Positions 9,033-55,566 of a DNA stretch of 64,000 bases are shown here, in pieces. The notes beneath the pieces are model-generated. The model saw nothing but the letters and a program-made list of their open reading frames with translations, searched no databases and was not told where the DNA came from. The DNA comes from Squalus acanthias. Taxonomy: Eukaryota. The DNA is taken from positions 7,688,001 to 7,752,000 of the forward strand of contig CM059453.1 in assembly GCA_030390025.1 (NCBI GenBank), read 5' to 3'. Each line of letters begins with the position of its first letter. Position 1 is the stretch's first letter. The translations under genes and the position numbers were made by a program.

Positions 9033-9117
9033 CTGTGCACCATCACCACGATCAGGATCAAAAGGATAACTGCCGCGGCTGCCAGTACTGAGATGAGAAT
9101 TTCCCAGGGAAATGTTT
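9033..9117 (-). CDS. Gene A exon 6, transmembrane (ETFPWEILISVLAAAAVILLILIVVMVHR)
   Basis: ttttag acceptor, CAG|GTATGT donor, 85 nt phase 1-2, uncharged hydrophobic span; paralog at 60971-61055. Confidence 0.88.
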
Positions 9118-9499
9118 CTAAAATATTCAAAAAGACTTTGCTGTTTATTATTGCTCTAAGATTACATCATGGTTTTAGGATAACTTTTGTCAGCTAGTGT
9201 AGGAAAGTTTCCTCGAAATTCTCATCTTAAAAGTAAGAGTTCAGTATTTCTATCCATTCCTAAAAAGACAGGACTCTGACCCGGCTATCAGAAGATGGAG
9301 GACTTGGAAATGACCCCCAATCTGATCTCCCTACAAATCCTTATTATATTTTATTCATCTATTGGGCAATGTTCACTCAACACAGAGAGAGCATCATTTG
9401 AACGGATTTCTCTTTCCAAAGACTAACACTGAATTTCAGCAATGGATTTGTCCCCTGTGTAAATTTGAAATAATTGTCTTAAGATTGCTGTCCTATATA

Positions 9500-10862
9500 G
9501 AGTCATAGTCATAGAGTCATCGAGTTATACAGCACAGAAAGAGGCCCTTCGGCACATCGTGTCCGCACCGGCCATCAAGCCCTGTCTATTATAATCCCAT
9601 TTTCCAGCACTTGGTCCGTAGCCTTGTATGCTATGGCGTTTCAAGTGCTCATCTAAATGCTTCTTCAATGTTGTGAGGGTTCCTGCCGCTACCACCCTTT
9701 CAGGCAGTGAGTTCCAGGTTCCAACCACCCTCTACGTGAAAAGGTTTTTCCTCAAATCCCCTCTAAACCTCCTGCCCCTTACCTTGAAACTATGCCCCCT
9801 GGTTAGTGACCCCTCTACTAAGGGGAAAAGTTACTTTCTATCTAGGCTATCTATGCCCCTCATAATTTGGACAAATCAATCAGCCTTCTCTGCTCTAAGG
9901 AAAACAACCCCAGCATGTCCAGTCTCTCCATAGCTGAAACGCTCCAGCCCAGGTAACATCCTGGTGAATCTCCTCTGCACCCTCTCTAATATTCTATATC
10001 TCGGCAAATGAAGGCAAGTATCCCATATGCCTTCTTAACCACCTTATCCAAGTGTCCTGCTGCCTTCAGGGATCTATGTACAAGCACATCAAGGTCCCAC
10101 TGATACTCTGTCCTTCATTGGGTCCTACCATTCATTGTTTATTCCCTTGCCTTGTTAGTCCTCCCAAAACACATCACCTCACACTTTTCAGGGTGAAATT
10201 CCATTTGCCAATGTTCTGCCCATCTGACCAACCGTCCAAATCATCCTGTAGCCTGAGGCTTCACTCCTCGCTATTTACCACACCACCAATTTTCGTGTCA
10301 TCTGCGAACTTACTGATCATACCTCATAAATTCATATCTAATTCATTAATGTACACTACAAACAGCAAGGGACCCAGCACCGATCCCTGCGGTACACCAT
10401 TGGACACAGGCTTCCAATCACAAAAACAACCTTCGGCCATCACCCTCTGCCTCCTACCACTAAGACAATTTTGGATCCAATGTGCCAAATTGCCCTGGAT
10501 CCCATGGGCTCTTATCTTCTTGACCATTCTCCAATGCTGGACTTTGTCAAAAGCCTTACTGAAGTCCATGTAGACTACATCAACTGCACTACCCTCAAAC
10601 ACACACCTAGTCATCCCCTCTAAAAATTCAATCAAATTGGTTAGACATGATCACCCCCGGACAAAGCCATGCTGATTATCCTTGATTAATCCTTGCCTCT
10701 CCAATTGGAGACTAATTCTGTCCCTCAGAATTGTTTCCAATAATTTCCCTACCACTGATGTTAGGCTCACTGGCCTGAAAATTCCCAGGTTTATCCCAAC
10801 TACACTTCTTGAATCATGGTACTACGTTCGCTGACCTCCAGTCCTCTGGTACCTCCCCTATG
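9500..10862 (-). mobile_element. CR1 LINE, 5'-truncated RT and 3' end
   Basis: VDVVYMDFSKAFDKV, GVPQGSVLGPLLF, WNSLP; paralog at 59106-60575. Confidence 0.92.
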
Positions 10863-10954
10863 TTAAATTCATAAGAAAACGAAATAAGAAAATGTAAATA
10901 AAAAATACCCGGTCCACATCTCAGCATTGGTAACGCATGTTGATTCATTTAATG

Positions 10955-11330
10955 CAAATTGTTCGTGTATAAAATTATGTGGATCATAGAAAGAGTGGAT
11001 TGGAAGGACGTATTTCCCTTAGGAGAGATGTCAAAAACCAGGGGGCATAGATTTAAAGTAATTGGTGGAAGGATTAGAGGGGATTTGAGTGGAACCTATT
11101 TCACCCAGAGGGTTCTGGGGGAATGGAACTCACTGCCTGAAAGAGTGATAGAGGCAACACCCTAATTGCATTTCAAAAGTACTTGGATATGCACTTGAAG
11201 CACCGTAACCTGCAAAGCTACGGACCAAGAACTGAAAAGTGGGATTGGGCTGGATAGCTCTTTTTCGGCCGCCACACACACGAATAGCCGAATGATCTCC
11301 TTCTGTGCCGTAAATTTCTATGATTCTAAC
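10955..11330 (+). mobile_element. CR1 LINE 3' fragment
   Basis: KTRGHRFK...FTQRV..WNSLP; paralog at 58640-59010. Confidence 0.85.
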
Positions 11331-11714
11331 TGAGATGTTTTTGCAAAATTGTGCCTTAAAGAACTCGCGACTCCTCTTCATACGATACGATGTTTGAATT
11401 GCATGGGACCATCAATCTTGAAAACATGTGATTAATGATCTGACTAAATATATGATTCCAGGTATAAACCCGACAGCCTACCTATATCATCGCTGCACAC
11501 TCGGATCTGTTCGCCTGCTATCCAATAATTCAAATCAATCTAGTTTCTGCTCTTTCAATTATCCCAAATATTCTCGATCAATTTTCAGGATTATCTCATG
11601 TTATCTTCTCATAATATCTCCATGACAACTATCCAGGGGCTATCTGAAATAGCTCTAAAAAGTGTTTTATTGAGCGAGGTGAAAAAGTTGAACTAAATGT
11701 TCAAAACTACCAAG

Positions 11715-12365
11715 TTCATAAGAACAAAATAACTTAAGAATTAGGAGCAGGAGTCGGTGCTACGGCCACTCCAACCTGCTCCGCCATTCAATAAGATCAT
11801 GGCTGATCTTGGACCACAACTCCACTTTCCCGCCCGATCCCCATATCCCTTAATTCTCCTGCAGTCCAAAAATCTATCGATCTCAGCCTCCACAACCCTC
11901 TGGGTTAGAGAATTCCAAAACTTCACAATCCTCTGAGTGAAGAAATGCCTCCTCATCTCAGTCTTTAATGGCCCACGCCTTATCCTGAGAATATGCGCCC
12001 GAGTTCTGGGCACTCAAACCAGGTTAAATAGCCTCTCCACATCTACCAGGGGAAACAACCGCTCCGCATCTATTTGGAGATCGGGCACTAAAGTGGAGTT
12101 GAGGTCGATGATCATTCATGAACTTATTGAATGGCGGAGCAGGCTCGAGGGGCCGTATGGCCGACTCCTGCTCCTACTTCTTATGTTCTTACCCTGTCAA
12201 TCCCCTCAGAAGCTTATATATTTCACTGAGATCACCTCTCATTCTTCTAAACTCCAGAGAGTATAGGCCTAGTCTGCTCAATCTCACATCATATGTCAAC
12301 TCTCTCATTCCAGGTATCAATTTATTGAATCTTCGTCGCACCGCCTCTAAGTATATCCTTCCTCA
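11715..12365 (-). mobile_element. CR1 LINE 3' fragment with a nested opposite-strand CR1 tail (about 12075-12190)
   Basis: KTEMRRHFFTQRIV.FWNSL; paralog at 57760-58250. Confidence 0.85.
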
Positions 12366-12561
12366 GAAAACGAGACTAAAACTTTGCAAGTTAAATTAAA
12401 TGAAAGACTGCTGCCGGCTACCGTTAGACTGAGAGGAAACCTGACTTCATAAGGAGTTTAATTAACTCAGTAGTTTCTGTTTTATTAACGATTGCGGGCT
12501 GCTTCTATTGCTTTATATTAATCCTTTCCATTCGAGATAAAAAGAAGGCGACAAGAAACAG

Positions 12562-12920
12562 ATAAGATCCTGAGGAGTCTTGACAGGGTGGATGTGGAGA
12601 GGATGTTCCCTCTTGTGGGAGAATCTAGAACTAGGTGTCACTGTTTAAAAAAAAGGGGTCGGCCATTTAAGACAGAGATGAGGAGAATGTTTTTCTCAGA
12701 GAGGGTCGTGAGTCTTTGGAATTCACTTCCTCAGAGGGCGGTGGAAGCAGAGTCTTTGTATATTTTTAAGGCAGTAGTAGATATATTCTTGATTAGCAAG
12801 GGGGGTGAAAGGTTATCGGGGTTAGCAGGGAATGTGGAGAAATCAGATCAGCCATGATCTTATTGAAAGGTGGAACAGACTCGAGGGGCCGAGTGGCCGA
12901 CTCCTGCTCCTAATTAGTAT
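12562..12920 (+). mobile_element. CR1 3' fragment specific to gene A
   Basis: GESRTR.H...WNSLPQRAVEA; flanked by a repeated AAACAGA; empty site in gene C near 57535. Confidence 0.85.
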
Positions 12921-13174
12921 ATAAACAGACCCGGAAATGAGAGACTGATTTTAAATGCATTCATTATTCCCACCGCAACTTTCAACGAGATGTTGGCCAG
13001 ACCATAAACTACTCCAAATATCCATGGATTCAGACTTAAATTACCAATGGATTTGGCATGCAGCTATCGAATGGAACTGTTATTTGCTGACATTAACACC
13101 GTTCAGTTAGTCACTGACAGGTGAAGGACCAAACCGTCCGCCGTACTTATTTTACAGTAAAATGTAATATATAC

Positions 13175-13462
13175 CTTCAGTTTTGAGCTGGTATTTTCCG
13201 ACAGTAACGCCATGCTCGTTTACTCCAAAACATGAGATCAGTTGTCCAGTTCCAGTTGGGTGAGTCAGTGTCAGGGAGCTCTGCTCCAGGTAGATATTCA
13301 ACTGCGAGGAGAGGATATTGATATCTGAACTGTTCGCAGTGATGTTTCTCCCATTGATGCCCCAGGTGATGTTTGCTGGGGGGTTGGCTCTCACACTGCA
13401 GGTACAATGAATCCAACTCTCAGCACTGGTGCAGGTCGGGCCTGATACTATTGTCGGTTTAA
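13175..13462 (-). CDS. Gene A exon 5, membrane-proximal Ig domain c (canonical acceptor mutated)
   Basis: Open frame GPTC...CTCSVRANPPANITW...SSLTL...ISCFGVNEHG, donor G|GTATAT; acceptor AG>AT relative to the paralogs; in-frame cryptic TAG 15 nt downstream. Confidence 0.75.
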
Positions 13463-13714
13463 ATAAAAAAAAGTGAAGTCATATTGAAATAGTTTCCATG
13501 CAGCGGTTTGCAGTGTCTAAATAGAACCAATTTCGGCGATTAGATTAAGAAGAGAGGTCACTGCACATAACGAATTTGATTAGAACCATTCAATGTTACT
13601 TTCATTTCATGCTTCATCAGACTTTCCTTTCCCCTATTTCTAGCAAGGCAGTTAATAAGGTATGGAATTGCATCAAGCAGTCAATCGATCCATATATTTC
13701 CTGGAATAACATGT

Positions 13715-14070
13715 GGGATCAGTCGGTTGTCCTTTGAGTAGAGATTGAGTAGTTTGGACCTATACTCGCTGGAGTTTAGAAGAATGAGAGATGATCTCAT
13801 TGAAACATGATATTCTGAGGGGGATTGTCAGGGTAGATGCTGAAAGATTGTTTCCCCTGTCCGGAGAGCTGAAAACTATGGGGCATAGTTTCATGATAAG
13901 GGGACGGCCGTTTTAGACTGAGATCAGGAGGAATTTCTTCACTCAGAGGGTAGTGAATCTTTGGAATTCTCTGCCCCAAAGGGTTGTGGATGCTGAGTCA
14001 TTGAGTATATTCAAGGCTGAGATAGACAGATTTTTGGACTCTAGGGGAATCAAGTGATATGGAGATCCCA
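13715..14070 (+). mobile_element. CR1 3' fragment
   Basis: CR1 3' coding motifs; paralogs at 34455-34660 and 56285-56750. Confidence 0.8.
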
Positions 14071-14326
14071 CATATTCATTCAGTTGGTTTTAACCCATCA
14101 GAGATACATTTTACCTGGAGTTGTGTATCGGGGTGTCCAGTTGTTTTTTAAAAGTGTCATTTACTCAATTAATTTGGTTGAACTCTCCTTTTACTGACAT
14201 TTCAGGCAATATTACTACGGATTTTGAGACAGTTGTGTGAACACTGGGGGGAAAACACCGAGGCCTAATCACTGTAAGACGGATTGATGTCCCAATATAC
14301 ATTTGATAGGTTGACACAGCACTTGC

Positions 14327-14584
14327 ATTGTACAGAAATCTTTGAGGAGCTGTTCGCTTTGCCCAAGTTATTATCAGCCACGCACCAATATTCACCGTTA
14401 TATTCAAAACTAATGTTGTGGAATATGTGCTTCAGTTCACCAGTGGAAGACTTGCTGATCTCCTCACCATTTCGGACCAAGGTTAAGTTGCTCGCTATGG
14501 TCCCCCTGGCCGTGCAGTATAATAATAAAGAGCTCCCTTCCACTGCTGCTATAGAGGAATTGATGGCTGGTTTCTGTGGGCCAT
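14327..14584 (-). CDS. Gene A exon 4, Ig domain b (non-canonical GC donor)
   Basis: tccag acceptor, 258 nt, EGSSLLLYC...GEYWCVADNNLG; donor is T|GCAAGT where the gene C paralog has T|GTAAGT. Confidence 0.85.
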
Positions 14585-14959
14585 CTGGAAGAGATGATGC
14601 CATTGTTTCTAAATGCGGTTATCAGTGCGGATGAGGAAAATAAAACAATATATGTGACAACTAAAGAAGAATATAAAACTTTGATATGTTGGTTTTCTTG
14701 TAAACTATGAATTCAAAATGCAGCACATGACTTTTACGCCCTAGATGATAAGCTTATTTCAAAACTAAGCCTTCTTTTCCTTCTTATCTTCAAGGATTTG
14801 AAGAGTTATATGTTTTCCCGCATAAGGTTCTATTCCTCCGGTACATCAACCAAGTGGCCATTCCTCCCAGAATAAGTAGGGTGGACTTTCCCATCTCTTA
14901 CACAGTGGTGGTGAGGCCAATTGTAGAATCCCGAACACCGCCCCAGCTAAATTGCGCCA

Positions 14960-15625
14960 CAGGTTAGCAAGACCATAAAAAAGCAAACCAAGCACTAGGG
15001 TTTATTCCGAAATGGATAAAATTAAAAAGTAGGAAAGTTATGCTAAATCTATATCGAACCATGGTTAGACCACATTTAGAGTACTGCATGCAATTCTGGC
15101 CGCTATATTATAAAAATGATATAGAGGCACTGGAGAGTGGGTAGAGAAGAATTGCAAGGATGGTGCCAGAAATGCGAGTGTATACATATCAGGGAAGGAT
15201 GAACAGGCTGAGTCTTTTTTGTCTTGAAAAAAGACGGCTGAGGGGTGACCTAATAGAGGTCTTTTAAATTATGAAAGGCATTCATAGAGCGGATACAGAG
15301 AGAATGTTTCCACTTGTGGTGAAGAAGATAACTGGAGGCCATCAATATAAGATAGTCACCACAAATCCAACAGGGAATTCAGAAGAAACGTATTTACCCA
15401 GAGAGTGGTGAGATTGTGGAACTCGTTACCACAGGGAGTGGTTGAAGCGAATAGTATAGATGCATTTAAGGGGAGGGTGGACAAGCATATGAGGGAGAAG
15501 GTAATAGCGGGTTACACTGATAGAGTTAGATGAGGAAAGACGGGAGGAGGCTCAAGTGGAGCATAAACGTCGGCATAGACTGGTTATGCCCAATGACCTG
15601 TTTCTCTGCCGTATGTCCTATGTAT
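14960..15625 (+). mobile_element. CR1 3' fragment
   Basis: VRPHLEYC.QFW motif; paralogs at 37500-38170 and 53295-53955 (both minus). Confidence 0.85.
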
Positions 15626-15914
15626 ATATGTGAGTTAGCTCAAACCATGAATGGACTCTCCTTGGCCTGCATGTTCCAGTTACTATGTGGCTGAACAAAA
15701 ATCAGGTGTTGGAAGCCTTTGCAATTATATTTCATATAAACCACATCCCTGGAGTGACCAATATTACTCCATGGTTCTGGGGCAAATGTGAAATAATATG
15801 ACTTACAAGAAGCTTCAATTATCCAGGCGAGCTATCACTATATTTAGCATACAGACATCTATTGAACCGCTTCATCAATAAGTTGGTTGAATGAAGCGCA
15901 GAGCAGGCACTTAC

Positions 15915-16226
15915 TTTTAACATCCAGTGTAAGAGTTTCTTCATCAGTAGCTGTGACACCGTCGACTATAAGTTTACATCCCAGCTTCTTCCCATGATGG
16001 TCCAGTGATGGGCTGAAGTTGAAAGTGGATGAAACCTTCTGGGAATCGTCGAAACTGTTATCATATCCTTTTGAAGTTTTAATCGCTGGCAGAAATGCAG
16101 GTACAACATTGTCATGGGTCCACATCAATTCAAGGTTGGCGGACGGGCAACTGTGGGTGACTGAGCAGGTCAGGTGTGCTGGCTTTCCGGCAATCAATTC
16201 CCCAGAGACTGATATCCGTGGTTTAT
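15915..16226 (-). CDS. Gene A exon 3, C2-set Ig domain a
   Basis: tacag acceptor, A|GTAAGT donor, 312 nt; LTCSVTHSCP...W...F.PS.DHHGKKLGC is typical of Siglec domain 2, including the extra Cys for the V-C2 disulfide. Confidence 0.92.
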
Positions 16227-16479
16227 CTGTAAGGAGAGAAGGACATTCGCGTTACAGTAGATTTTAATTTAAATAATGTCCAACGGTGTGAAATTTGATT
16301 TAGCCCAAATAATTTGAAACACGACCCTATGATATGGGGGTCCATAAATGATCAGATTGAAGCAATCCCTCCTAAGTATTGACCATGTCCTCTGACCTGT
16401 CCATTAGAAGTACAAATCTTGATTTAATTAAACACATCCTTGAGGGATTGAATTTTGACAAACCGGTCTTGACTTTTAT

Positions 16480-17150
16480 TCATTCATGGAATGTGAGCGT
16501 CGCTGACATGGCCACCATTTATGACCCATCCCTAATTGACCTTGAGAAGGAGCTGGTGAGCCACGTTCTTCAACCGCTGCAGTCCGTGTGCTGAAGGTAC
16601 TCCCACAGTGCTGTTAGAGAGGCAGTTCCATGGATTTGACCCTGCGACAATGAAAGTTCGGCGATATATTTCCAAGACAGGATGGTGTGTAACTTGGAGG
16701 GGAACTTGGAGATGGTGGTGTTTCCATGCGCCTGCTGCCCTTGTCCTTCGAGGTGGAAGAGGTCGCCTGTTTGGGAGGTGCTGCCGAAGAAGCCTTGGCG
16801 AGTTGCTGCAGTGCATCTTGTAGATGGTAGACACTGCAGCCATGGTGCGCCGGTGGTGGAGGAGTGAATGTCTAAGGTGGTGGATGTGGTGCCAATCAAG
16901 CGGGCTGCTTTGCCCTGGATGGTGTCGAGCATCTTGAGTGTGGTTGGAGCTGCACTCATCCAGGCAAGTGGAGAGTATTCCATCACACTCCTGACTTGTG
17001 CCTTGTTGATGGTGGAAAGGCTTTGCGAGTCAGGAGGTGAGACACTCGCTACAGAATACCCAGCCTCTGACCTGCTCTTTTTGCCACAGTATTTACGTGG
17101 CTGGTTCAAATAAGTTTCTGGTCAATGGTGACACCCAGGATGGTAATGCC
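16480..17150 (-). mobile_element. Non-LTR retrotransposon (CR1/L2/Crack-like) RT 3' end
   Basis: KAQVRSVMEYSPLAWMSAAPTTLK.LDTIQ.KAARLIG; shared with gene B (39010-39700), absent from gene C. Confidence 0.8.
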
Positions 17151-17398
17151 ATCTAGCATTGCACTTACTGACTGATCAACAGAGGGTGCTTCTGTAAGTT
17201 ACTATGAAGGCCAGCGCCCCATTTCAGTTCAAGTCAAAATATAATACACACCTGGGTATTACACAATGGACCAGTCCTGCCGGTGTAGCCTGTGACATGG
17301 GGCAAGAGTAACACGAAATCTTTCCATTTTATGCTAAAATTAAATGGCACTGGCGCGATGGAATATAAACTACATAAGGAACAAATCGAAAAACCTAC

Positions 17399-17779
17399 CT
17401 AAAATAGAAAGAGTGACCTTAGATTCGGTAGAATATCCTTCTCTCTTATTCTGGGCATTGATGATCTCCAATTTGAAATAATAAACACCTTCATCGATCT
17501 TCCTGATGTCCTTCAACTTTAAGGAACATTGTTTCTTTTCAAAGTCGCCGGTGAACTGAGCTCGCCCTCTGTAGTTCAAGGACACGTTGTCTGAATTCCG
17601 TGAATCACAGATAATCGACACCCCTGAGGTACCAGGTTTAGGACCCCCCTTTAACCACATACCCTGTGGACTGCGGCCATAGGCGGGATAATCAAATGTA
17701 CACGGGATCTCTGCACATGACCCGTTTACCGCCGACACCTTCCACGGCACCTTCACAGACCATCGTGAACTATGGACAA
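17399..17779 (-). CDS. Gene A exon 2, Siglec-type V-set Ig domain
   Basis: ccag acceptor, G|GTAGG donor, 381 nt phase 1-1; GSCAEIPCTFDYP...W...GRAQFTGD...CSLKL...D.GVYYFK has the Siglec Cys pattern (two N-terminal Cys, E-strand CSL, no F-strand Cys). Confidence 0.92.
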
Positions 17780-18175
17780 CTGGTGAAAAAACAGAAATTA
17801 AAAACCCAATGAAATCCGCAATAATATCGCAATTTAAACATACCCTGACCGTCAAGTTAAATACTGTTAATTTAACCTTTAATAAACATCCACAAACATA
17901 TTCATTAGTACATCCATTAATACTCGTGAAAGTTTCATTAAAACTCTTTAGATTCCATTAAGTATTCCATTGAAAGTCGATAAATCATAGAGTAAATATT
18001 AGATCATTCTTATAAAATATAAGATAATTTTTCTAATGAAATATACATTAAATGGGCAAATCGGTCATTTGTAAATTTCCAACTAAACATGTACTATCTC
18101 CACAAACAATGAACGTGTTAATTTGCCACACAATGGAAATCGCTTCTATATTAATTATTAAAATGAATATTTTAC

Positions 18176-18218
18176 CTTCGCTAAATATCAGAAGGGAGAT
18201 CAATCTAATACTCTTCAT
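18176..18218 (-). CDS. Siglec-like gene A exon 1, leader peptide (MKSIRLISLLIFSE)
   Basis: ATG at 18218, hydrophobic 14 codons, phase-1 donor GAAG|GTAAAA; homologous 43-nt exon at 51069-51111. Confidence 0.85.
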
Positions 18219-29879: not shown

Positions 29880-30046
29880 GATTTAAGCTTAATCGCGGTC
29901 TATACACTGGACTCCTCATTCTGGAGATATCCTTCATGTTTGTGAAGACTTCAAATATTCACCGATTGCGAGCAGAACCTCTACACTCTGCGATGATTAC
30001 TGGATGTAGATCATCTGATAGCAATATTTCGATACTGGTCTTGGCT
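29880..30046 (-). pseudogene. Gene B decayed ITIM exon
   Basis: Alignable to gene A exon 8 (CTC CAG AAT GAG GAG TCC...), with a TGA after 11 codons, frameshifts, and both Tyr motifs destroyed (distal Tyr codon is TAG). Confidence 0.75.
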
Positions 30047-30489
30047 CTGTAACAGAAAGGAGTGGATAAGAGAGGGAGCAAGAGATACGGGTATGAGGGC
30101 GCTTCCTCGATCAGAATAACCCTCTTTCTCGCTTCTCTGATCATTTTTCATTGTTCTCACTCAGGGAGGGACTCATTCTGAGCTTTGGAACATACAGTCG
30201 TCTGAAAAGACGAACAGGAAATAATCGACTGGTCAATGAGCCTATCCAAAACAGTCAAGACGCAACAATGCACCATGACGACAGTATTCCCTCTCACCAC
30301 ATTGCAACCTCTCGCGGGAGGCAAACATATGTAAACAGCACTCGGCCAATTCAGAAATCTGTAAAATTCTTCTCCGACCCCGAAGATGAACAAAACGAGT
30401 TCCAAGGGGATAACAGTGTCCATGAGGTAGATCACCCAACATCCCACCTAAGATTTGTATACACTGATATTAGCCAAAGGAAGGAATTT

Positions 30490-30948
30490 GTCCTTAGGAC
30501 TTATGAAGAAGGGTTGAGCAGGTTGGGCCTATACTCACTGGAGTTTAGAAGCATGAGAGGTGATCTTATTGAAACATATAAGATACTGAGGGGGCTCGAG
30601 AAGGTCGATGCAGAGAGGATGTCTCCCCTCGTGGGGAAATCTAGAACACGGGGGCATATTTTCAGAATAAAGGATCGCCCTTTTAGAACTGAGATGAGGA
30701 GGAATTTCTTCTCTCAGAGGGTCGTAAATCTGTGGAATTCTCTGCCCCAGAGAGCTGCGGAGGCTGGGTCATTAAATACATTGAAGGTGGAGATAGACAG
30801 ATTTTTGCAAGATAAGGGAGTGAAGGGTTATGGGGAGCGGGCAGGGAAGTGGCTTTGAGCCCGAGATCATTCATGATCTTATTGAATGGCGGAGCAGGCT
30901 CGAGGGGCCTAGTGGCCTATTCCTGCTCCTGTTTCTTATGTTCTTATA
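30490..30948 (+). mobile_element. CR1 3' end
   Basis: YEE.LSRLGLYSLEFR.MRGDLIETYKIL...WNSLPQ; makes up the 3' half of ORF 30151-30858. Confidence 0.9.
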
Positions 30949-31954
30949 TTGGTCCAGTTTCTTTTTGAATTGTTGCAGCGAATTCGCACTCATCACACGA
31001 GCCGGTAACTTATTAAAAGTGTCGATGAGCCCCTGGGTAAAGAATAACCATCAGATATCTAAAATAGTTTTAGGTATTCATCTGGCGAATTATCAGGACA
31101 GCAACACTTTGTACCCAATGCATTACAATGTACGTGCTCCAGTAAACCTGCTTCCAACAAGCGACTGCAGACTGCAAATGAGATAATTGGCCAAGCAGTC
31201 ACAATTTGCTGGCTTTGGAGGAGTTCAAACCACCACGTGTGTTGCAATCCCTATTCTTCTTCAGTAGTGCGTGAAGTTTCTAACATCCAACTGAACCATT
31301 AGAACAGGCAGCCTGGGCCTGAGATTAAGATGTGTGGAGGAGTCTGTCCTCTCCTTCTCACAGTGCATGGCATTGAGAACATCGAGTTGAAGCCAGAGCC
31401 TCGGTATATCGGAAAGTCTGCAGCTCCGACAATGCAGCACGCCCGGAGTACGACACCGGAGTCACACGCGAGCTGAAAGGCTCAAATCGTGACGTGAGGT
31501 TGCAAACCACAACCTTCAGCCTCAGAGAGAGCGCGCTAGCAAATCAGCCAAACTGACACCAAGATACATGGAGGAAGGTGCAAAAATGCTGGAGAAATGC
31601 GATGTGATTTGGCCCTGCTTTGGCCTCACACTATGTGTTTAGAATTTTAACCGCAAGAGATAATATAGTCGGGGAGTATTCATTAGTGTGGTTAACGTGT
31701 ATAATGACATTTAAAGGTGTTATTTAGACCGGCTCATTTCAAAAGAAGTCCAAACCAGAGAAAATGTTCATGATGCCATTTACCCGATCATTTCACACAA
31801 TGGCCACTGCAACATTTCCCTGTTCATGAAGTGAGGAGGCCATTCCACCCTTTAAGAACACCCTCAAACCAGTTCCTATAACATCTGTTTAACTTTGGAT
31901 GTGCCTGTAATGTGATCCCAGACAATGGTCTAAACTCTCCATCTCCTCACTTAC

Positions 31955-32040
31955 CTCAGTTCAGTGGGTTCTCCAACACACAGTATTTCGCTGCACCCTA
32001 GTCTGTAGGAGAGACCCCAACAGGGACATTTACCTTCTTC
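31955..32040 (-). pseudogene. Gene B juxtamembrane exon with early stop (RKKVNVPVGVSPTD*)
   Basis: tgtttcag acceptor, TAG at 31998-32000, GAG|GTAAGT donor. Confidence 0.65.
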
Positions 32041-32828
32041 CTGAAACAGAAAATACAAATGATTCACGTCTCCTAATTACAGATAATTCGCTTCAGTACA
32101 CCGCCCAGTGTCCCTGTGTTGAACAACAGGGTTCGCACTATAGTAACTTGTTCTTGTTACTGTTTCCTGATTGGCTGCGACCAGATTTAATTCCCGTTTC
32201 TTTTCTATCTCTACACTTTCCTAATTCCAAAGCAAGCATTCTCTCTATCTGATGAAGCTGGTTATATCTATCTTGATCTGCTTTGACAAATTCAGTGTTC
32301 ACTGAACATTTTAAGAGAGCGGCCTCTACTGGTGCACAATAACCATTGCAATTTCCGCCAAGTCTTAAAATTGCACCGGAATTTGACTTTTAGTCTGCAG
32401 CAATGGTTCTGTGGAGCATTTTATGACCTCCTGATTCATGAAGTCCTCCGCCAATATGGCCACGGGAGCTTTGAGCTGCCAAACCGTGCTCAGCTTAAAT
32501 TGTCTGTTATGAAATACGGCGCCTCCGCTCAAGTGACAGGCTAGATTTTGCACCCATGTTCTGGACTGGCCCTTGATGTACAATCTTTGAACTAAGAAGT
32601 GAAAGACCAGACATGGGACGCTGAACTACTGACATTCCCCTGCTTACCCCTCACAAGACACCTGAACTCCAGCAAGCATTCCCTTGTCAACTCTTAGCTG
32701 AGATTCAGGGTCAATGATATCTGGGGTTAATTACATTAAGCAATATTTGCTCATGGGCTGAATTCTGATGTCACGTCCTTTTGAAATCTGTCTTATTAAA
32801 GCACGAGTATAAGTAATATGAACCATAC

Positions 32829-32928
32829 CTGTGTGAATCAATCTCTATCGTCACCAAGACAATGATGCCAATCAGAATGAGAACTGCGACGGCGGCTCTG
32901 ATTGGCATGACAAATCTCCAAAATGATC
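32829..32928 (-). pseudogene. Gene B TM exon (GSFWRFVMPIRAAVAVLILIGIIVLVTIEIDSHR)
   Basis: ttttag acceptor, CAG|GTATGG donor, 100 nt phase 1-2; flanking intron homologous to gene A's TM exon flanks; Arg codon at 32897-32899. Confidence 0.8.
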
Positions 32929-33029
32929 CTAAAATATAAAAAAAAATCCGTGCTCGTCATTATTGCACTAAGATTATACCAAGATTCAAGACAGCATTTA
33001 ACAGCATGTAGGGGAAGCTGTTAAGAACA

Positions 33030-33270
33030 AAATGAACTTATTTTTATATAGCGCTTTTGCCGACGTCTCAAAGCGCTATACAGCCAATGAAGTACTTTTG
33101 AAGTGTAGTCACTGTTGTAATGTAGGGAACGTGGCCGCAAAATTGCGCACAGCAAGCTCCCACAAACAGCCATAAGGTAAATCAGCAGATAAATCTGTTT
33201 CTGTGTTATTGGTTGAGGGATAAATATTGGTCAGGGCACCAGAGGGAACTCCCCTGCTCTTCTTCAAAAG
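33030..33270 (-). mobile_element. Deu-type SINE 3' fragment
   Basis: Reverse complement of the SINE tail. Confidence 0.65.
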
Positions 33271-33907
33271 ATTAAATATCGCAGTCTCCCTGAGAGACTG
33301 CATCAATCCACGCCGCATACTCGGATCTGCTCGCTTGCTATCCGAGATGTTGCTTCAGTCTATAACCTGCTCTTTCAGTTATCGAAGTTATCCTGGCTCA
33401 ATTGTCAGTGTTATCGCACTGTATAGTTCTTTCAGAATATCTTCAGTACAACAAAACCGGCAGTAGGCTGAAATATCCGTGAAAAAATGTTGAACTGATC
33501 GACTGTACCCCACTACCGTTACAATGAGAGGAAACATGATTTCATCGAGTGTGTCACTAAGTCAGAAGGTTCTGTTTTATTAAAGACCACACGCTGCTTC
33601 TAGTGTTTTATATTACCCCTCCTATCTTTACAAAAACTAGGCGAAAATAATCAAATTTAAAAAATAGACTCTAAACTTTACCTGAATTATTTCCATCGTA
33701 ACTTTCAGTGAGGTAGCGTTCAGTCATGAACCAGTCCCAAACACTACTGAAATTAAAATTGGATTCTATCCTACTTTGCAGATAAGAATAATATTTCAGC
33801 TCAGTGGAACTGGTACTTGCTGACACTAACACCGTTCAGTTAATCACTTACAGGTGATGGACCGAACCGTTCGCAGTAATTAAATTACAGGAAAATGCAA
33901 TATATAC

Positions 33908-34195
33908 CCCCAGATTGTAGCTGGTACTTTCCGACAGTAACGCCATGCTCATTTACTCCAAAACATGAGATCAGGTGCCCAGTTCCAGTTGGGTGATTCA
34001 GTGTCAGGGAGCTCTGCACCAGGTGCCTATTCAACTCCGAGCAGAGGATATTGAGAACTGAACTGTTCGCAGTGATGTTTCTCCCATTGATGCCCCAGGT
34101 GATGTTTGCTGGTGGGTTGGCTCTGATACTGCATGTACAATGAATCCCACTCTCAGAACTGGTGCAGGTCGGGCCTGATACTATTGTGGGTTCAT
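33908..34195 (-). pseudogene. Gene B C2c exon (open frame, intact splice sites)
   Basis: tttttag acceptor, G|GTATAT donor, 288 nt, EPTIVSGPTC...ISCFGVNEHG. Confidence 0.85.
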
Positions 34196-34659
34196 CTAAA
34201 AAAAGAGAAGTAAAATTGAGATAGTTTCCATTCAGTAGCTTGCAGTGTCTAAATAGAACCAATTTCGGCGTTTCGATTAAACAGAGAGTTCACTGCGCAT
34301 AACGAGTTTCGTTAGAATCAGTTAATTTTACATTCATGTAATGCTTCATCAGACTTTACTTTCCCCTAATTTCGAGCAAGGCAATAAATCAGGTATAACA
34401 TTGCATGAAGCCAATTTGCAATCAATTGATCCATATATTTCCTGGAGCAACATGTGTGATGAGGGTGTTGTCCTATGATGAGAGATTGAGTAGATTGGGC
34501 CTAAACTCTCTGGAGCTTAGAAGAATGAGAGATGATGTCATTGAAACATATAAGGTTCTAAGGGGGATTGACAGGGTAAATGCTGAGAGGCTGTTTCCCC
34601 CGACTGGAGAGTCTAGAACTAGGGGGCATAGACTCAGGATAAGGGGTCGGCTATTTAGA

Positions 34660-37348
34660 ACAGCGGCAGCGGCGAGAATCCGATTCAAAAACAACAAAAA
34701 AAGCAGAGTGATGTCACAGGAAAGCAGGTAGGTGATTGGTTGGTGAGTATTACAGCTCTTTTAGGCTCTATAAGTTAGGGAAGGGGTTAAATTAAGAGCC
34801 GAGAAACTGTAACTTCCAATACTTATTAAATTGAAAACTTAAATTAGATAAAATAATCAAAAATAAAATATCGTTTGAATAAAAGCTTTAACTAATTAAT
34901 TAATAAATGACACAAGGTTAGAGATGACAGGGCAGGTGGTGTGTCGTACCTGCAGCATGCGGGAGACTGCGGAGAGCATCGCGATCCCGAGCAACCACAT
35001 CTGCAGTAAGAGTTTGCGACTCGAGGAACTTCGGCTCAGAATTGTTGAGCTGGAGTACGAGCTGCAGACATTGCGATGCATCAGGGAGGGGGAGAGTTAC
35101 CTAGACACATTGTTCCAGGAGGCAGTAAAACCCTTTATGTTAAGTTGTACTTTAGAGTTCGTCAGTGGTCAGGGACAGGAGTGTGTGCCCGCGATTCAGG
35201 AAGGTATGGGGAGCCAGGATATACTGATGGAGGAGCATTAGCCCTGGATCTTGTCCAACAGGTACGAGGTACTTGCTACCTGTATGAATGAGGAAAAGGA
35301 CTGCAAGGAGAATGAGCAAACTGACCACGGCATTGTGGTACAGGGGGCCATTCAAGTAGGGGGAGAAGGAAGGAATGTGGTAGTAGTAGGGGACAGTATA
35401 TTCAGGGGTGTAGATACTATTCTCTGCAGCTGCGAAAGAGAGTCCCGAACGCTCTGTTGCCTGCCCGGTACCAGGGTTAAGGATATCTCCTCATGGCTGG
35501 AGAAGAATTTGGAGCGGTAGGGGTTGGATCCATTTGTCATGGTCCATGTAGAAATCAACTACCTAGGTAGAACCAGGAATGATGTTCTGCTGAGGGAGTT
35601 AGAGGAGCTATGATATAAATTAATAAGCAGAACAACAAGGATAATAATCTGTGGAATACTAACTGAGCCACGCGCAAATTGGCATAGGGTCAAGCAGATC
35701 AGAGAGTTAAATGCGTGTTTCAAAGTGTGTGTGGGAAGAAGTGTTTTCAATTCATGGGGCAGTGGCGTCTGTAGATAGGTTTTTAACCAAAAAAAATGGG
35801 GGAGTGTTCAGTTTCGGGGGAATTTAGAAATCTAAAAAGAAAAGTGCAGGGAATAGAGCAGTGTAGCGATTTGGGTAAAAATAAGAGGATTGTGACAGGT
35901 AGGGGCGGAAAGTTTAATGGTGGCAGTGCAGCAGAGAATAAGGTGAAAACAGGGATTAATGGTAAAAAAATAAAGCCTCTTTATCTGAAAGCACGAAGCA
36001 TTCGTAACAAGATAGACGAACAAGTGGGACAGATAGAATTAAATGGGTTTGATGTAATAGCCTGTACAGAGACGTGGTAGCACGGTGAACAAGGTTGGGA
36101 ACTAAATGTTCCAGACACTTGACATTTCAAAAAGACAGGCGAAATGGAAAAGGAGGGGGAGTAGCGCTGATAATAAAGAATAACATAAGGAAAGTAGAGA
36201 AAAAGAATCTCGGCTCGGAAGATCAGGAAGTAGAATCAGTATTGGTGGAGATTGTGAATAACAAGGGGCAGAAAACTGGTGGGACTAGTATATAGGCATC
36301 CTAAAGTAGCTATACCGTTGGACAGAATATTGATCAAGAAGTAGTAGGAGCTTGTTACAAAGGTAATACAATAATCGTGGGAGACTTTAGTTTTCATATA
36401 AATCTGGAGGACGAGTTCATTGAATGCATTCGGGACAGTTTCCTTGAACAATGTGTCATCGAACCAACCGTGAATCAGGCTATTTTCGATCTTGTACTCT
36501 GTAATGAGACAGGATTAATGAATAATCTCATAGTAAAGGATTCTCTGGGGCAGAGTGAGTCAACATAATATGATATAATTTCAAATTAAGTTTGAGAGTG
36601 ACTTACCTAGGTCTGAAACTAGAATCTTAATCTTAAATAAATCCAATTACATAGGTATGAGGGGCGAGTTCGCTAAGGTAGATTGTAAAAATAGATTAAA
36701 ATGTATGGTGGTAGATAAGCAGTGGCTAGCATTTAAAGAAATATTTCATAATTCTCACCAAAAATACATTCCATTGAGAAACAACAATTCTACGGGAAAA
36801 CTGATCCAACCCTGGCTACTTAAAAAATTAAGGATAGCATTAGATTGTAAGAAGAAGGTTATAACGTTGCAAATAATAGCAGTAAGCGTGAGGATTGGGA
36901 CAGTTCCAGGAACCAGCAAAGGACGACCAAAAATTGATGAGAAGGTATAAAATAGAATGAGAGAAAACTAGCAAGAAATATAAAAGCAGATTTTAAGAGT
37001 TTAGACAAGTATGCAAAAAGGAAGAGAAGAAGCAAAAGTCAATGTTGGTTCCTGAGAGGCTGAGACAAGATACATTCTTATGGGAAATAAGGAAATGGCA
37101 GAAACGTTAAACAAATATTCTGTATCTGTCTCCACAGTACAAGACACAAAAAGCATACCACAAATGGTGGGGAACCAAGGGTCTAATGAGGGTGAGGTAC
37201 TAAACGTAATTAATATAATTAGAGAAAAAGTGCAGGAGAAAGTAATGGGACGAAAAATCGACATATCCTCTGGAACAGACGGCCTACATCCTAGGGTTCT
37301 AAAAGAGGTGGCTGAAGAGATAGTTGATGCATTGGTTTTGATCTTTCC
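34660..37348 (+). mobile_element. CR1 LINE 5' portion: 5'UTR, ORF1 (zinc finger + SGNH esterase), ORF2 APE endonuclease; RT deleted
   Basis: CxxC...HIC, VVVVGDSIFRG...CCLPGTRVKDI; ARSIRNK, IACTETW, GKGGGVAL, GDF, DLVLCNE, SGTDGLHPRVLKE; multiple stops. Confidence 0.9.
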
Positions 37349-38458
37349 CAGAACCATGGAGTAATATTGGTCACTACAGGGATGTGGTTTATATGAAATA
37401 TAATTGCAAAGGCTTCCAACACCTGATTTTTGTTCAGCCACAGAGTAATTGGAACATACAGGCCAAGGGGAGTCCATTCATGGTCTGAGCTAACTCACAT
37501 ATATACATAGGACATACGGCAGAGAAACAGGTCATTGGGCCCAACCAGTCCATGCCGGCGTTTATGCTCCAGCAGAGCCTCCTCCCGTCTTTCGTCATCT
37601 AAATCTATTAGCCTAACCCGCTATTAACTTCTCCCTCATATGCTTGTCCACCCTCCCCTTAAATGCATCTCCACTATTCGCTTCAACCACTCCCTGTGGT
37701 AGCGAGTTCCACATTCTCATCACTCTCTGGGTAAAGAAGTTTCTTCTGAATTCCCTGTTGGATTTGTGGTGACTATCTTATATTGATGGTCTCTAGTTAT
37801 CTTCTTCCCCACAAGTGGAAACATTCTCTCTGTATCCGCTCTATGAATGCCTTTCATAATTTTAATGAGCTCTATTAGGTCACCCCTCAGCCTTCTTTTT
37901 TCAGGAGAGAAGATAACCAGCCTGTTCATCCTTTCCTGATATATATACCCCCGCATTTCTGGCATCATCCTTGCAATTCTTCTCTACATCCTCTCCAGTG
38001 CCTCTATATCCTTTTTATAATATGGCGGACAGAATTGCACGCAGTACTCTAAGTGTGGTCTAACCGAGGTTCGATACAGATTTAGCAGAACTTCCCTGCT
38101 ATTTAATTCTATCCTTCTCGGAATAAACCCTAGTGCTTGGTTTGCTTTTTTATGGTCTTGCTAAACTGTGGCGCAATTTAGCTGGGGCGGTGGTCGGGAT
38201 TCTACAATTGGCCTCAGCTCCACTGTGTAAGAGATGGGAAAGTCCAACCTACTTATTCTTGGAGGAATGGCCACTTGGTTGATGTACCAGAGTAATAGAA
38301 CCTTACACGGGATGTACCGGAGGAATAGAACCTAACACGAGAAAACATGCAACTCTTCAAATCCTTGAAGAGATGAATGTTTATTTTTGGAATAAGCTTA
38401 ACATCTAGTGCGTAAAAGTCATGAGCTGCATATTGAATTTATAGTTTAAAAGAAAACC

Positions 38459-38762
38459 ACCAGTGTAAGAGTTTCTTCATCAGTAGCTGTGACACCGTCG
38501 ACTATAAGTTTACATCCCAACATCTTCCGATGATGGTCCAGTGATGGGTTGAAGTTGAAAGTGGATGAAACCTTCTGGGAACCCTCGAAACTGTTATCAT
38601 GTTCTTTTGAAGTTTTAATCTCTGGCACAAATGCAGGGATAACATTGTCATGGTTCCTCATCAATTCAAGTTTGGCGGACGGGCAACTGTGTGTGACTGA
38701 GCCGATCAGGTGTGCTGACTTTCCTGCAATCAATTCCCCAGAGACTGATATCCGTGGTTTAT
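38459..38762 (-). pseudogene. Gene B C2a exon, truncated at the inversion breakpoint
   Basis: HLIGSVTHSCP (Cys lost), ELMRNH (Trp lost); the 3' end and donor are replaced by inverted intron sequence. Confidence 0.85.
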
Positions 38763-39009
38763 CTGTAAGGAGAGAAGGACATTCGCGTTACCGTAGATTT
38801 TAATTTAAAAAATGGCGAATGGCGTGCAAGTTGATTCAGCCCAAAGACTTTGAAACATGACCCTAAGAGATGGGGGCCTGTAAATGATCTGATTGAAAAA
38901 AACCATCCTAAGTATTGACAATGTCCTCTGACCTGTCCATTAGAAGTACAAATCTTGATTTATTTTTCCACATCCTTCAGGGATTGGATTTTGACACACC
39001 GGTCTATTC

Positions 39010-39700
39010 TTTTATTGATTATGGAATGTGAGCGTCGCAGACAAGGCCAGCATTTATTGTCCATCCCTAATTGCCCAAGAGAAGGTGGTGGTGAGCCAAC
39101 TTCTTGAACCGCTGCAGTCTCCCACAGTGCAATTAGGGAGGGAGGTCCATGATTTTGACCCAGCGACAATGAAATTTCGGCGATATATTTCCAAGTGAGG
39201 ATGGTGTGTGACTTGGAGGGGAACTTGGAGATGGTGGTGTTCCCATGCGCCTGCTGCCCTTGTCCTTCTAGGTGGTAGAGGTCGCTGGTTTTGGAGGTGC
39301 TGCCGAAGAAGCCTTGGCGAGTTGCTGCAGTGCATCTTGTAGATGGTAAACACTGCAGCCACGGTGCGCCGGTGGTGGAGGGAGTGAATGTTTAATGTGG
39401 TAGATGGGCTGCCAATCAGGCGGGCTGCTTTGTCCTGGATGGTGTCGAGCATCTTGATTGTTGTTGGAGCTACACTCATCCAGGCAAGTGGAGAGTATTC
39501 CAGCACACTCCTGACTTGTGCCTTGTTGATGGTGAAAAGGCTTTGAGGAGTCTGGAGGTGAGACACCCGCCACAGAATACCCAGCCTCTGACCTGCTCTT
39601 TTTGCCACAGTATTTATGTGGCTGGTCCAGTTAAGTTTCTGGTCAATATTGAACGCCAGGATGTTGATGGTGGGGGATTCGGCGATGGCAATGCCATCTA
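39010..39700 (-). mobile_element. Crack/CR1-like LINE RT 3' end, paralogous to 16480-17150
   Basis: ORF 39054-39704. Confidence 0.8.
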
Positions 39701-39943
39701 GCATTGCACTTACTGAATGATCAACAGAGGGAGATTCTGCAAAGTTACTATGAAGGCCAGCGCCCCATTTCAGTTCAAGTCAAAATATAACACTCACCTG
39801 GGTATTACACAATGGACCAGTCCTGCCGCTGTAGCCTGTGGCATGGGGCAAGTGCAACACGAAATCTTTCCATTTTATGCTCAAATTAAATGGCACTGCC
39901 GAGATGGAATATAAACTACATAAGGAACAGATCAAAAACCTAC

Positions 39944-40324
39944 CTCAAAAAAGAAAGAGTGACCTTAGATTCGGTAGAATATCCTTCTATTTTATTGTTG
40001 GCATTGAAGATCTTCAATTTAAAATAATAAACACCTCCATCGATCTTCCTGATGTCCTTTAACTTTAAGGAACATCGTTTATTTTCAAAGTCGCCGGTGA
40101 ACTGAGCGCGCCCTCCATAGTTCAAGGGCACATTGTCTGAATTCCGGGAATCACATAAAATCGACACCCCTGAGGTACCAGTTTTAAGACCCCCCTTTAA
40201 CCACATACCCAGTGGGCTGCGGCCATAGGCGGGATAATCAAATGTACACGGGATCTCTGCACATGACCCGTTCACCGCCGACACCTTCCACGGCACCTTC
40301 ACAACCATCGTGAACTTGGGACAA
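39944..40324 (-). pseudogene. Gene B V-set exon (frameshifted)
   Basis: Nearly identical to gene A's V exon; a 1-nt deletion gives TGG TTG TGA (stop at 40299-40301); 1 extra nt before the donor. Confidence 0.85.
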
Positions 40325-40693
40325 CTGGTGAAAAAACAGAAATTAAACACCCATTGAAGTCCGCGATAATATCGCAATTAAAACATACCCTGACCGTCAA
40401 GTTAAATACCATTAATTTAACCTTTAAACACCCACCAACATATTATTTGGTACATCAATTAAACTCGTGACATTTTCAAAAAAACTCTTCAGATTCCATT
40501 GAAAGCCGATAAATAATAGAGTAAATATTAAAACAATTTTATAAAATACAAGATCAAGTTTCGAATGAAATATACATTAATTGCGCTAATCGGGAATTTG
40601 CAAATTAGCAACTAAACATGTACTATCTCCACAAATATGAATTGTTTTATTTTCCACAAAATGGAAATCGCGTCGGACATTAATTATTAAAAC

Positions 40694-40726
40694 TATCAGA
40701 ATGGAGATAAATCTAATACTCTTCAT
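40694..40726 (-). pseudogene. Gene B leader exon remnant
   Basis: ATG AAG AGT ATT AGA TTT ATC TCC ATT CTG ATA, then a deletion of about 20 nt that removes the AGCGAAG|GTAAAA donor. Confidence 0.8.
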
Positions 40727-51068: not shown

Positions 51069-51111
51069 ATGAAGAGTATTACATTGATCTCCATTCTGAT
51101 ATTTAGCGAAG
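51069..51111 (+). CDS. Siglec-like gene C exon 1, leader (MKSITLISILIFSE)
   Basis: ATG at 51069, GAAG|GTAAAA donor, 43 nt. Confidence 0.85.
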
Positions 51112-51505
51112 GTAAAATATTTATTTTAATAATTAATGTCAGAAGCGCTATCCATTCTGTGGCAAATTAATACGTTTATTGTTTGTGGAGATAGTACATG
51201 TTTAGTTGATAATGTGCAAATTCCCGATTTGTGCATTTAATGTATATTTCATTCGAAAAATTATCTTATATTTTATTAGATTGATTTAATATTTACTCTC
51301 TGATTTATCGACTTTCAATGGAATACTTAATGGAATATGAAGAGTTTTAATGAAACTTTCTCGAGTTTTAATGGATGTACTAATGAATATGTTAGTGGAT
51401 GTTTAAAGGTTAAATGAATAGTATTCAACTTGACGGTCAGGGTATGTTTTAATTGCGATATTATTGCGGATTTCAATGGGTGTTTAATTTCTGTTTTTTC
51501 ACCAG

Positions 51506-51886
51506 TTGTCCATAGTTCACGATGGTCTGTGAAGGTGCCGTGGAAGGTGTCGGCGGTGAGCGGGTCATGTGCTGAGATCCCGTGTACATTTGATTATCCC
51601 GCCTCTGGCCGCAATCCAGGGTGTATGTGGTTAAAGGGGGGTCCTAACCCTGGTACCTCAGGGGTCTCGATTGTCTATGATTCCAGTGATGCAAACAATA
51701 AAGACTATAACGATAGAGGACGAATTGAATTCACCGGCGATTTTCTAAAGAAACAATGTTCCTTACAGATTAATGTCACCAGGAAGAGCGATGCAGGTGA
51801 CTATTACTTCAGAGTGAAGATCACCACCGCCCGGAATATAACAGATCAATACGTTTCCAAATCTCCTGTCTCTCTTTCTATTTTAG
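51506..51886 (+). CDS. Gene C exon 2, Siglec V-set domain with essential Arg (GDYYFRV)
   Basis: ccag acceptor, G|GTAAGT donor, 381 nt open frame. Confidence 0.9.
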
Positions 51887-52691
51887 GTAAGTGTTTTTAT
51901 TTGCTCCTGTTGTATTTTATATTCCATCTCCTCAGTGCCATTGAACTTACGACTAACATACCAATATCCCGAGTAACTGTTGACCCATGTCAAAGGATAC
52001 AGCGGCAGGACTGCTCCGCTGCCTATAACCCAGGTGTGTGCTATGTTTTGACTTGAACTGTAATAGGGCGCAGGCCTTCTTAATAACTTACAGAAGCTCC
52101 CTGGCAAGGCAAGAATAATTATTTATCATAAGAATATAATAAACTGCAGGTGGAGGAAATATACAGGTCGATGTGAAATCCTTTGCAAAGAAGGCAGGTG
52201 GACCCATTGTGAAAATAGACTGCTTGATGTGGTGCCGAAGCGTTACGCCAACAGTGTCCCAGATTCTATCCCATGTCTGTGCTTGGGATAGAATCTAGGA
52301 CACGCTTAGTCTAATGACTCAGTGTCAGATCAAACAATTAATTTACCCAAAGCGGCATGGGCGGGTAGAATTGTTGCTGATATTTGAAAGTTTCATTTTG
52401 CATTTTGAGCAATGCAGTGAGTGCGTGCTCAATAAATCACCTGACAATAATGTGAATAATTCACGTGAGAAAGCGACTGACTATTAATTGAACGAGTACA
52501 TAAATGCTCCGATTGATTCTTTAACTCTAAGAACTTTTGGCATATTTCGATGCACCATAGCGCGGGAGGAAAACAGTAGAATTAATTCTTAAGGGGATAC
52601 TTTCTCAGACTTTGGGCTGAATCACCTTGCATACCATTGGCCATTTTAAAATTGAAATCTACTGTAACTCGAATGTCCTTCTCTCCTTATT

Positions 52692-53002
52692 ATAAACCAC
52701 GGATATCAGTCTCTGGGGAATTGATTGCTAGAAAACCAGCACACCTGACCTGCTCAGTCACCCACAGTTGCCCGTCCACCAAACTTGAACTGATGTGGAC
52801 TCATGACTAAGTTGTCCCTCCTTTTCTGCCAGAGAGTAAAACTTCAAAAGGAAATGGCGACAATGTCGAGGGTTCCAGAAGGTTTCATCCACTTTTAACT
52901 TCAGCCCATCACCGGACCATCATGGGAAGAAACTGGGATGTAAACCTATAGCCGACGGTGTCACAGCTACCGTTCAACCAACTCTTGCACCGGATGTTAA
53001 AT
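52692..53002 (+). pseudogene. Gene C C2a pseudo-exon
   Basis: Acceptor cag lost (ccttatt|ATAAACC), in-frame TAA at 52808-52810, 1-nt deletion near 52876; donor T|GTAAGT intact. Confidence 0.85.
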
Positions 53003-54303
53003 GTAAGTACCTGCTCTAAGCTTCATTCAACCAAATTGTTGATAAACCGGTTCAATAGATGTCTTTATATTGAATATAGTGATAGCGCACCTGGATAAAC
53101 AAGTAATCGAAGCTTCATGGAAGGCACATTATTTGACATTTACCCCAGACCCATGGAGTAATATTGGTCGCTCCAGGGTTTATCTGAAATTTTATTGCAA
53201 AGGCTCCCAATGTTTGATGTCGTTTCAGCCACAGAGTAACTGAAACATACAGGCCAGGGAGAGTCCATTCATGGTCTGAGCTAACTCACATACATACATA
53301 GGACATACGGCAGATAAACAGATCATTGGGCCCAACCAGTCCATGCTGGCGTTTATGCTCCACTCGAGCCAACTCCCATCGGTCCTCATCAAAATCTATC
53401 AGCGTAACCCTCTATTCCCTTCTCCCTCATATGCTTATCCAGCCTCCCATTAAATGCATCTTTACTATTCGCATCAACCACTCCCTGTGGTAGCGATTTC
53501 CACATTCTCGCCACACTCTGGGTAAAGAGGTTTCTTCTGAATTCCCAATTGGATTTCTTGGTTACCATCTTATATTGATAACCTCCAGTTATGCTCTTCC
53601 CCACAAGTGGGAACATTCTCTCTGCATCGACTCTATCAAAGCCTGCCACAATTTTAAAGCCCACTATTTGGTCACCATTCAGCCTTCTTTTTTCAAGAGA
53701 AAAGAGACCCAGCCTGTTCATCCTTTCCTGATATGTATACCCTCGCATTTCTGGTATCATCCTTGTAAATCTCTGCACCCTCTCCAGTGCCTCTATATCC
53801 TTTTTAAAATATGGTGACCAGAACTGTATGCAGTACTCCAAGTGTGGCCTAACCAATGTTCGATACAGGTTTAGCATAACCTCCATACCTTTCAATTCTA
53901 TCCCTCTCGAAATAAACTCTAGTGCTTGTTTTTTTTTATGGCCTTGCTAACCTGTGGCACAATTTAGCTGGGGCGGTAGTCTGGATTCTATAATTGGCCT
54001 CAGCACCCCTGTGTAAGACATGGGAAAGTCCACCGTACTTAATCTGGTAGGAATTGCCACTAGGTTGATGTACCGGTGGAATAGAACGTTATGCGGGCAA
54101 ACATATAACTCTTCAAATCGTTGAAGAGAAGAGGAGAAGGAATGCGTATGTTTGACATCAGCGTAAGATCGAGGGCATAAAAATCATGAAATAGATTTTG
54201 AATTTATAGATTGCAAGATAGCCATCATATCTTACTTCAATATTCTTCTTTAGTTGTCACATATATTGTTTTATATTCCTCATCCGCACTGATAACTACA
54301 TTT

Positions 54304-55535: not shown

Positions 55536-55566
55536 CATTCAGAACCAATGACCTCATCTCTTGCAG

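Follow-up and report, generated by a model that had tools for sequence, protein, structure and literature searches.

The question raised by this locus is whether an arginine in the membrane segment of a dead Siglec-like gene marks a class of activating receptors or is a product of decay. The stretch of DNA analysed here (the window; 64,000 nt, G000:C30:7688001-7752000, in a genome of 3.7 Gb) contains three Siglec-like genes: gene A (4406..18218, minus strand), the inhibitory-type partner of gene B; gene B itself (29882..40726, minus strand), an Arg-type pseudogene; and gene C (plus strand, 51069..61055), also of the inhibitory type, which starts at 51069 and whose tail exons lie beyond the window. 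In a protein search the closest relatives of the window genes were shark proteins. The genes have the layout of a type I membrane protein with a Siglec-type V-set followed by C2-type domains. The V exon of gene A matches sialoadhesin, MAG, CD33 or Siglec-5/7/8/10/15 in 18 of its 19 top PDB matches and scores above cut-off for Pfam V-set and Ig_CD22, and that of gene B is 93% identical to it. The F-strand arginine with which Siglecs bind sialic acid is found in only six of the 18 V exons with a readable motif; lysine takes its place in gene A, in gene B and in both intact genes of the Arg class described below, which is why gene B is termed 'Siglec-like'. Gene C has retained this arginine in its V exon and has a broken C2 exon.

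Gene B is a pseudogene (all its features are on the minus strand). The leader exon (40684..40726) has lost its donor, the V-set exon (39944..40324) is frameshifted near its start, the donor of the C2 exon (38451..38762) was destroyed at an inversion (~37337-38462), and the C3 exon is missing; the membrane-proximal Ig exon, C4 (33908..34195), is open. The first-pass annotation of this DNA had pointed to a transmembrane (TM) exon that keeps its frame and both splice sites, and this exon is indeed present at 32829..32928 (100 nt, AG/GT intact), with the translation SFWRFVMPIRAAVAVLILIGIIVLVTIEIDSH. Its arginine (AGA, 32897-32899) lies near the outer end of the membrane segment, as had been proposed, at residue 6 of the best 23-residue span, and six extra codons make up the C-terminal end of the exon, with EID encoded at 32837-32845. 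The open frame was rejected as proof of selection, for which it is weak evidence: in simulations, 10-33% of neutrally evolving copies keep the TM exon open, spliceable and hydrophobic. It is the conservation of the exon across species, and not the open frame alone, that takes the feature beyond chance. The first tail exon (31955..32040) holds a TAG at 31998-32000 directly after RKKVNVPVGVSPTD, a Tyr codon at 31983-31985, and the stop common to the whole class (31956-31958), one base ahead of the GT donor. The decayed last exon (29882..30046) is the homologue of the gene A exon that carries two tyrosines, and the reported loss of both ITIM tyrosines was confirmed: the first has been replaced and is also frameshifted, while a stop codon stands in place of the second.

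Gene B belongs to a large family, since more than 90 of the 150 V-exon matches listed are on contig C30 (a hand count, in which a few matches are split pieces). Twelve copies of the Arg-type TM exon were found in the genome, all between 6.91 and 7.91 Mb of C30 and in agreement between DNA and protein searches; the DNA search gave one further partial match to the flank. Exons were extracted from 600 kb of C30 around the TM exons (6.87-7.18 and 7.75-8.04 Mb). The AGA codon is present in all 12 copies, of which 11 are in frame. Ten of the 12 genes carry lesions, and the other two (6.907-6.922 and 7.773-7.789 Mb) are free of them from leader to tail exon. The 12 copies are not independent of one another, as their TM exons are 97% alike. 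Uncharged TM exons are seen in gene A (9033-9117, minus strand) and gene C (60971-61055, plus strand), and exons of the gene A type number 11; on a strict check, none of the 11 ITIM-class genes of the sub-cluster is free of lesions. Gene A itself has AT at the C4 acceptor, which is thereby lost, and GC at the C3 donor (window 13175-14584).

The same Arg segment occurs in two other shark orders. It is present in Cetorhinus P0017, alone among 21 cartilaginous-fish proteins, and in Mustelus P0058, alone among 140 new proteins from a profile search; because both libraries show a single representative of each cluster, the counts cannot be read as frequencies. A query with region 242-378 of P0017 gave four proteins and no further Arg-type member. 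P0017 and P0058 share the arginine, the exon length and the SHR end with the local exons. Between species the segments are about 50% identical and the membrane arginine is invariant, preceded by five apolar residues in all three species and followed by 15-17, while another arginine just upstream of it is Asp in P0058. The first-pass annotation had named Gly or Ile at this position, together with an intact ITIM tail, in related sharks as the outcome that would speak against it, which the arginine of P0017 and P0058 does not bear out, and had cautioned that the arginine and the acidic residues might be mutations acquired after inactivation. For the arginine, a post-inactivation origin is ruled out by the AGA codon in 12 of 12 copies, the two intact genes, P0017 and P0058. 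Of the acidic residues, the position 18 residues after the arginine is Glu in all 11 open local copies and Asp in Mustelus, that is, acidic in two of three species, and Gly in Cetorhinus. The proposed pattern IRxxxAxLxL fits gene B, but beyond IR it is lost in Cetorhinus and only partial in Mustelus. These comparisons identify gene B as the inactivated member of an old Siglec-like class of sharks in which the membrane arginine is conserved.

The tail of this class is longer than gene B suggests. A stop after SPTD had been taken as the end of the tail; it exists in gene B, where it is a private lesion (one of 11 tail exons; the others read AAG, ACA or ACG), and it was therefore rejected as a class-defining truncation. 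All 11 exons share a later stop, 1 nt ahead of the GT donor, and in ten of them the frame is open for 14 residues beyond the place of gene B's TAG until this stop is reached, which in this genome arises from a 2-nt gap (deletion) relative to gene A. The class tail thus has 28 residues and one degenerate Tyr motif, a YxxL found in nine of the 11 exons, with Ala at Y-2, which differs from the usual ITIM residue. In the Heptranchias ITIM protein P0003 the segment aligned with this YxxL is the proximal VTYAAV, and the last third of the exon aligns with VTYAAVQHPFN of Heptranchias ITIM proteins. These alignments mark it as the long form of the tail exon that is ancestral here, of which gene A has dropped the last third through an earlier donor. 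The tail exons of gene A (5968-6016 and 4406-4573, minus strand) contain the motifs VLYAAV and EYAAI. The ITIM-class genes here splice from the earlier donor (gene A 5915-6016) and no longer have the proximal Tyr motif, which most ITIM-class proteins of other sharks retain and which the Arg class keeps in degenerate form. The last exon has two to six in-frame stops in each of 13 distinct copies (14 rows, one duplicate) and is likely to be 3' UTR throughout the class. By the established rule, nonsense-mediated decay should not be triggered by a stop so near the last exon junction. In other species, the P0058 model stops shortly past the membrane segment and P0017 has an unrelated tail.

The ectodomains tell a different story from the membrane and tail exons. 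Mean identity between the Arg and ITIM classes is 88.0% for V, 91.7% for C4, 71.5% for TM and 70.3% for the last exon, and for V and C4 the identity between classes is about equal to that within them. In the tree of 21 V exons, the classes were separated in no bootstrap tree and three starred clades mix both, and at 6.91 Mb the V exons of the intact Arg gene and of the adjoining ITIM-class gene are 98.4% identical. In the TM tree (30 rows with only 35 columns), by comparison, a single clade unites the five Arg segments tested (three of the 12 local copies, P0017 and P0058), with support of 99/100 and recovery in 100% of 200 bootstrap trees. The C4 tree groups them otherwise: P0017 is joined to the Carcharodon ITIM protein P0013 and P0058 to the Mustelus ITIM protein P0007, with 100/98 in both cases. 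Near-identical, interleaved ectodomains are therefore combined with opposite TM and tail modules, and by this measure the Arg and ITIM genes show a paired-receptor pattern like that of Siglec-5/14, in which ectodomains are mixed between classes and membrane and tail exons stay apart. The pattern matches gene conversion, which is known for Siglec-5/14 (PMC4042635) and Siglec-11/16 (PMC5701461); exon shuffling by unequal crossing-over would look alike in these unrooted trees.

The primate pairs Siglec-5/14 and Siglec-11/16, as described in these sources (PMC4042635, PMC5701461), share with the shark genes the Siglec-type V-set ectodomain, the inhibitory and charged-TM forms side by side, the homogenised ligand-binding exons next to differing signalling exons, and the frequency of null copies of the activating form. 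The shark system differs in that it belongs to cartilaginous fish, comprises 12 Arg and 11 ITIM genes in a single sub-cluster instead of one pair, derives its Arg exon from the family's own inhibitory exon, has Lys or Ile at the place of the sialic-acid arginine in most V domains, and retains a short tail with one Tyr motif in the Arg class. A number of shark proteins in the databases (P0001-P0021, P0043 and P0058) are of the same family as the window genes and carry automatic annotations under mammalian names; P0017 and P0058, with the Arg segment, are among them. In the open-licence literature searched, no description of shark Siglec-like paired receptors or of shark DAP12 was found.

The explanation that we favour is that gene B is a dead member of a class whose intact genes likely encode activating receptors, in which the membrane arginine would pair with the two Asp residues of an ITAM adaptor; FcR-gamma or CD3-zeta is the probable adaptor. 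Relative to its ITIM sisters, the Arg class is set apart by the arginine, by six added residues at the inner face of the membrane and, in this genome, by the 2-nt deletion that places a stop before the last exon. The class would have arisen once from an ITIM sister gene, and repeated gene conversion or recombination would keep both classes on the same ligands, so that microbes engaging the inhibitory receptor would be countered by its Arg partner. In a bolder form of this reading, to which we give a probability of about 0.45, sharks made from their own inhibitory membrane exon an activating Siglec-like receptor that couples to FcR-gamma or CD3-zeta instead of DAP12, converged in this on the membrane design of LILRA and GPVI, kept the module across shark orders, and time and again refitted it with the ectodomain of the local inhibitory partner. 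The Arg receptor likely works like an activating partner of the Siglec-14 type with a LILRA-like membrane geometry. Signalling through some acidic adaptor is, on these data, highly probable; for FcR-gamma or CD3-zeta in particular the balance is only slightly favourable.

The depth of the arginine bears on the choice of adaptor. According to section 2.4.1 of PMC13107469, an arginine in the top half of the membrane segment goes with FcR-gamma or zeta, and a central lysine with DAP12. Depth was scored in the best 23- or 19-residue TM span, on a rough scale. The arginine is residue 6 of the 23-residue span in all three species, that is, in the outer quarter, and the central basic residue (Lys) of DAP12 partners is not seen; in 19-residue spans it is at position 2, at the interface, in two of the three species. 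Acidic C-ends have been noted for FcR-gamma-coupled segments (PMC6557307). The genome contains TM exons of FcR-gamma (L075) and of CD3-zeta (L074), and both encode the membrane Asp. The published FcR-gamma-coupled signature consists of NxxR and an upstream DYT consensus (PMC6557307, PMC2413239). None of the three species shows NxxR: the residue at Arg-3 is Met, Leu or Phe. The DYT consensus is likewise missing upstream of the arginine in the Arg-class segments.

Receptors described with NxxR include LILRA, PIR-A, NKp46, GPVI, OSCAR, FcalphaRI and Xenopus XFL TM1 (PMC6557307, PMC2413239, PMC13107469). From what these sources describe, the Arg class resembles them in the arginine near the outer TM end, the short tail and, in two of three shark species, an acidic residue at the inner end, but it lacks Asn at Arg-3 and DYT and has a Siglec instead of an LRC ectodomain; its tail also lies on an exon of its own, unlike in the XFL TM1 genes, where TM and tail share one exon. 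Since the Arg TM exon shares 71.5% identity with the inhibitory TM exon of these sharks, from which it would derive, homology with the NxxR segment was rejected and the likeness is read as convergent. On this evidence, the Arg class is not a member of the NxxR type.

The rival that fares best keeps the same activating paired class and couples it to DAP12 or DAP10, as in known activating Siglecs; we regard this as possible, although clearly less probable than our preferred reading. Human Siglec-14 uses DAP12 (PMC4042635), as do Siglec-14, -15 and -16 in other reports (PMC13358205, PMC13233462, PMC6288428), and DAP10 has been named as a possible alternative for Siglec-15 (PMC11550040). A wallaby protein labelled Siglec-14 in the database, P0127, has its arginine at position 7 of the same spans and 8 residues past a Trp, where the Arg class has 7, which means that the depth of the arginine is not enough to tell the adaptors apart; the protein suggests that there are exceptions among Siglecs to the central-Lys rule for DAP12. 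The arginine of human Siglec-14 is placed alike. Against DAP12 stand the central Lys of its partners (PMC13107469, section 2.4.1), the absence from P0127 of the acidic C-end that two of the three shark species have, and the fact that the name of P0127 is a database label only. A genome search for the DAP10 family (PF07213) was blank, as were its controls. DAP12 and DAP10 are described as linked to NFKBID (PMC4536121).

It is unlikely, and somewhat more so than coupling to DAP12 or DAP10, that the receptor uses no adaptor at all, with an interface arginine and a role as a tail-less decoy, as an endocytic lectin or in weak signalling through the remaining Tyr motif. Position 2 in 19-residue spans would suit such an arrangement, and the YxxL aligned with VTYAAV of P0003 could signal by itself; however, the 15-17 apolar residues after the arginine are short for a full span, five more precede it in every species, and the residue is invariant where the segments are only about 50% identical. 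As to the Tyr motif, it has Ala at Y-2 and is missing from the P0017 and P0058 models. Chance mutation in a decaying, much-copied pseudogene lineage, as ten broken genes of 12, non-independent copies and the 10-33% of open frames under neutrality might suggest, is a very improbable source of the arginine and the acidic residues. The proteins of Cetorhinus and Mustelus, which share arginine, exon length and SHR end, largely refute it, and the two intact genes also speak against it.

In the literature surveyed, paired Siglecs are described mainly from primates. A shark array of activating and inhibitory Siglec-like receptors whose ectodomains evolve in concert would extend this arms-race design to cartilaginous fish, where the activating module would have evolved separately. 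FcR-gamma or zeta as the adaptor would break the rule of DAP12 for activating Siglecs, and would provide a natural test of whether an outer arginine without NxxR suffices to choose the adaptor. Gene B itself is dead, and the finding draws its value from the two intact paralogs and from the orthologs.

Several further observations were made in the family. All six genes with the Siglec arginine in V (gene C, window 51506-53002, and those at 7.05, 7.10, 7.84, 7.86 and 7.91 Mb of C30) share a dead C2 exon, with TT at the acceptor and a stop in at least five; two of them are Arg-TM genes with no lesion besides C2. The C2 exon is phase-symmetric, so that a dead copy may be skipped. Stegostoma P0053 has a Lys in a TM segment of the gene A type and a short, Tyr-free tail, and is perhaps a second, independent activating form, while Chiloscyllium P0099 has an internal hydrophobic stretch containing Arg. 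About 90 related V exons are found on C30, at 6.0-8.03 Mb and 0.19-0.31 Mb, and contigs C17, C3542 and C3 hold further clusters with more distant V exons (~30-38% identity). The regions 6.88-7.17 and 7.69-8.04 Mb of C30 resemble segmental duplicates, and their TM regions show 99% identity; duplicated haplotypes in the assembly may be an alternative source of these blocks. Finally, several repeats of a block of about 1.6 kb lie upstream of genes A, B and C (window 19443-23042 and 41088-44157), with a palindromic insert of 130 nt in gene B (42074-42203).
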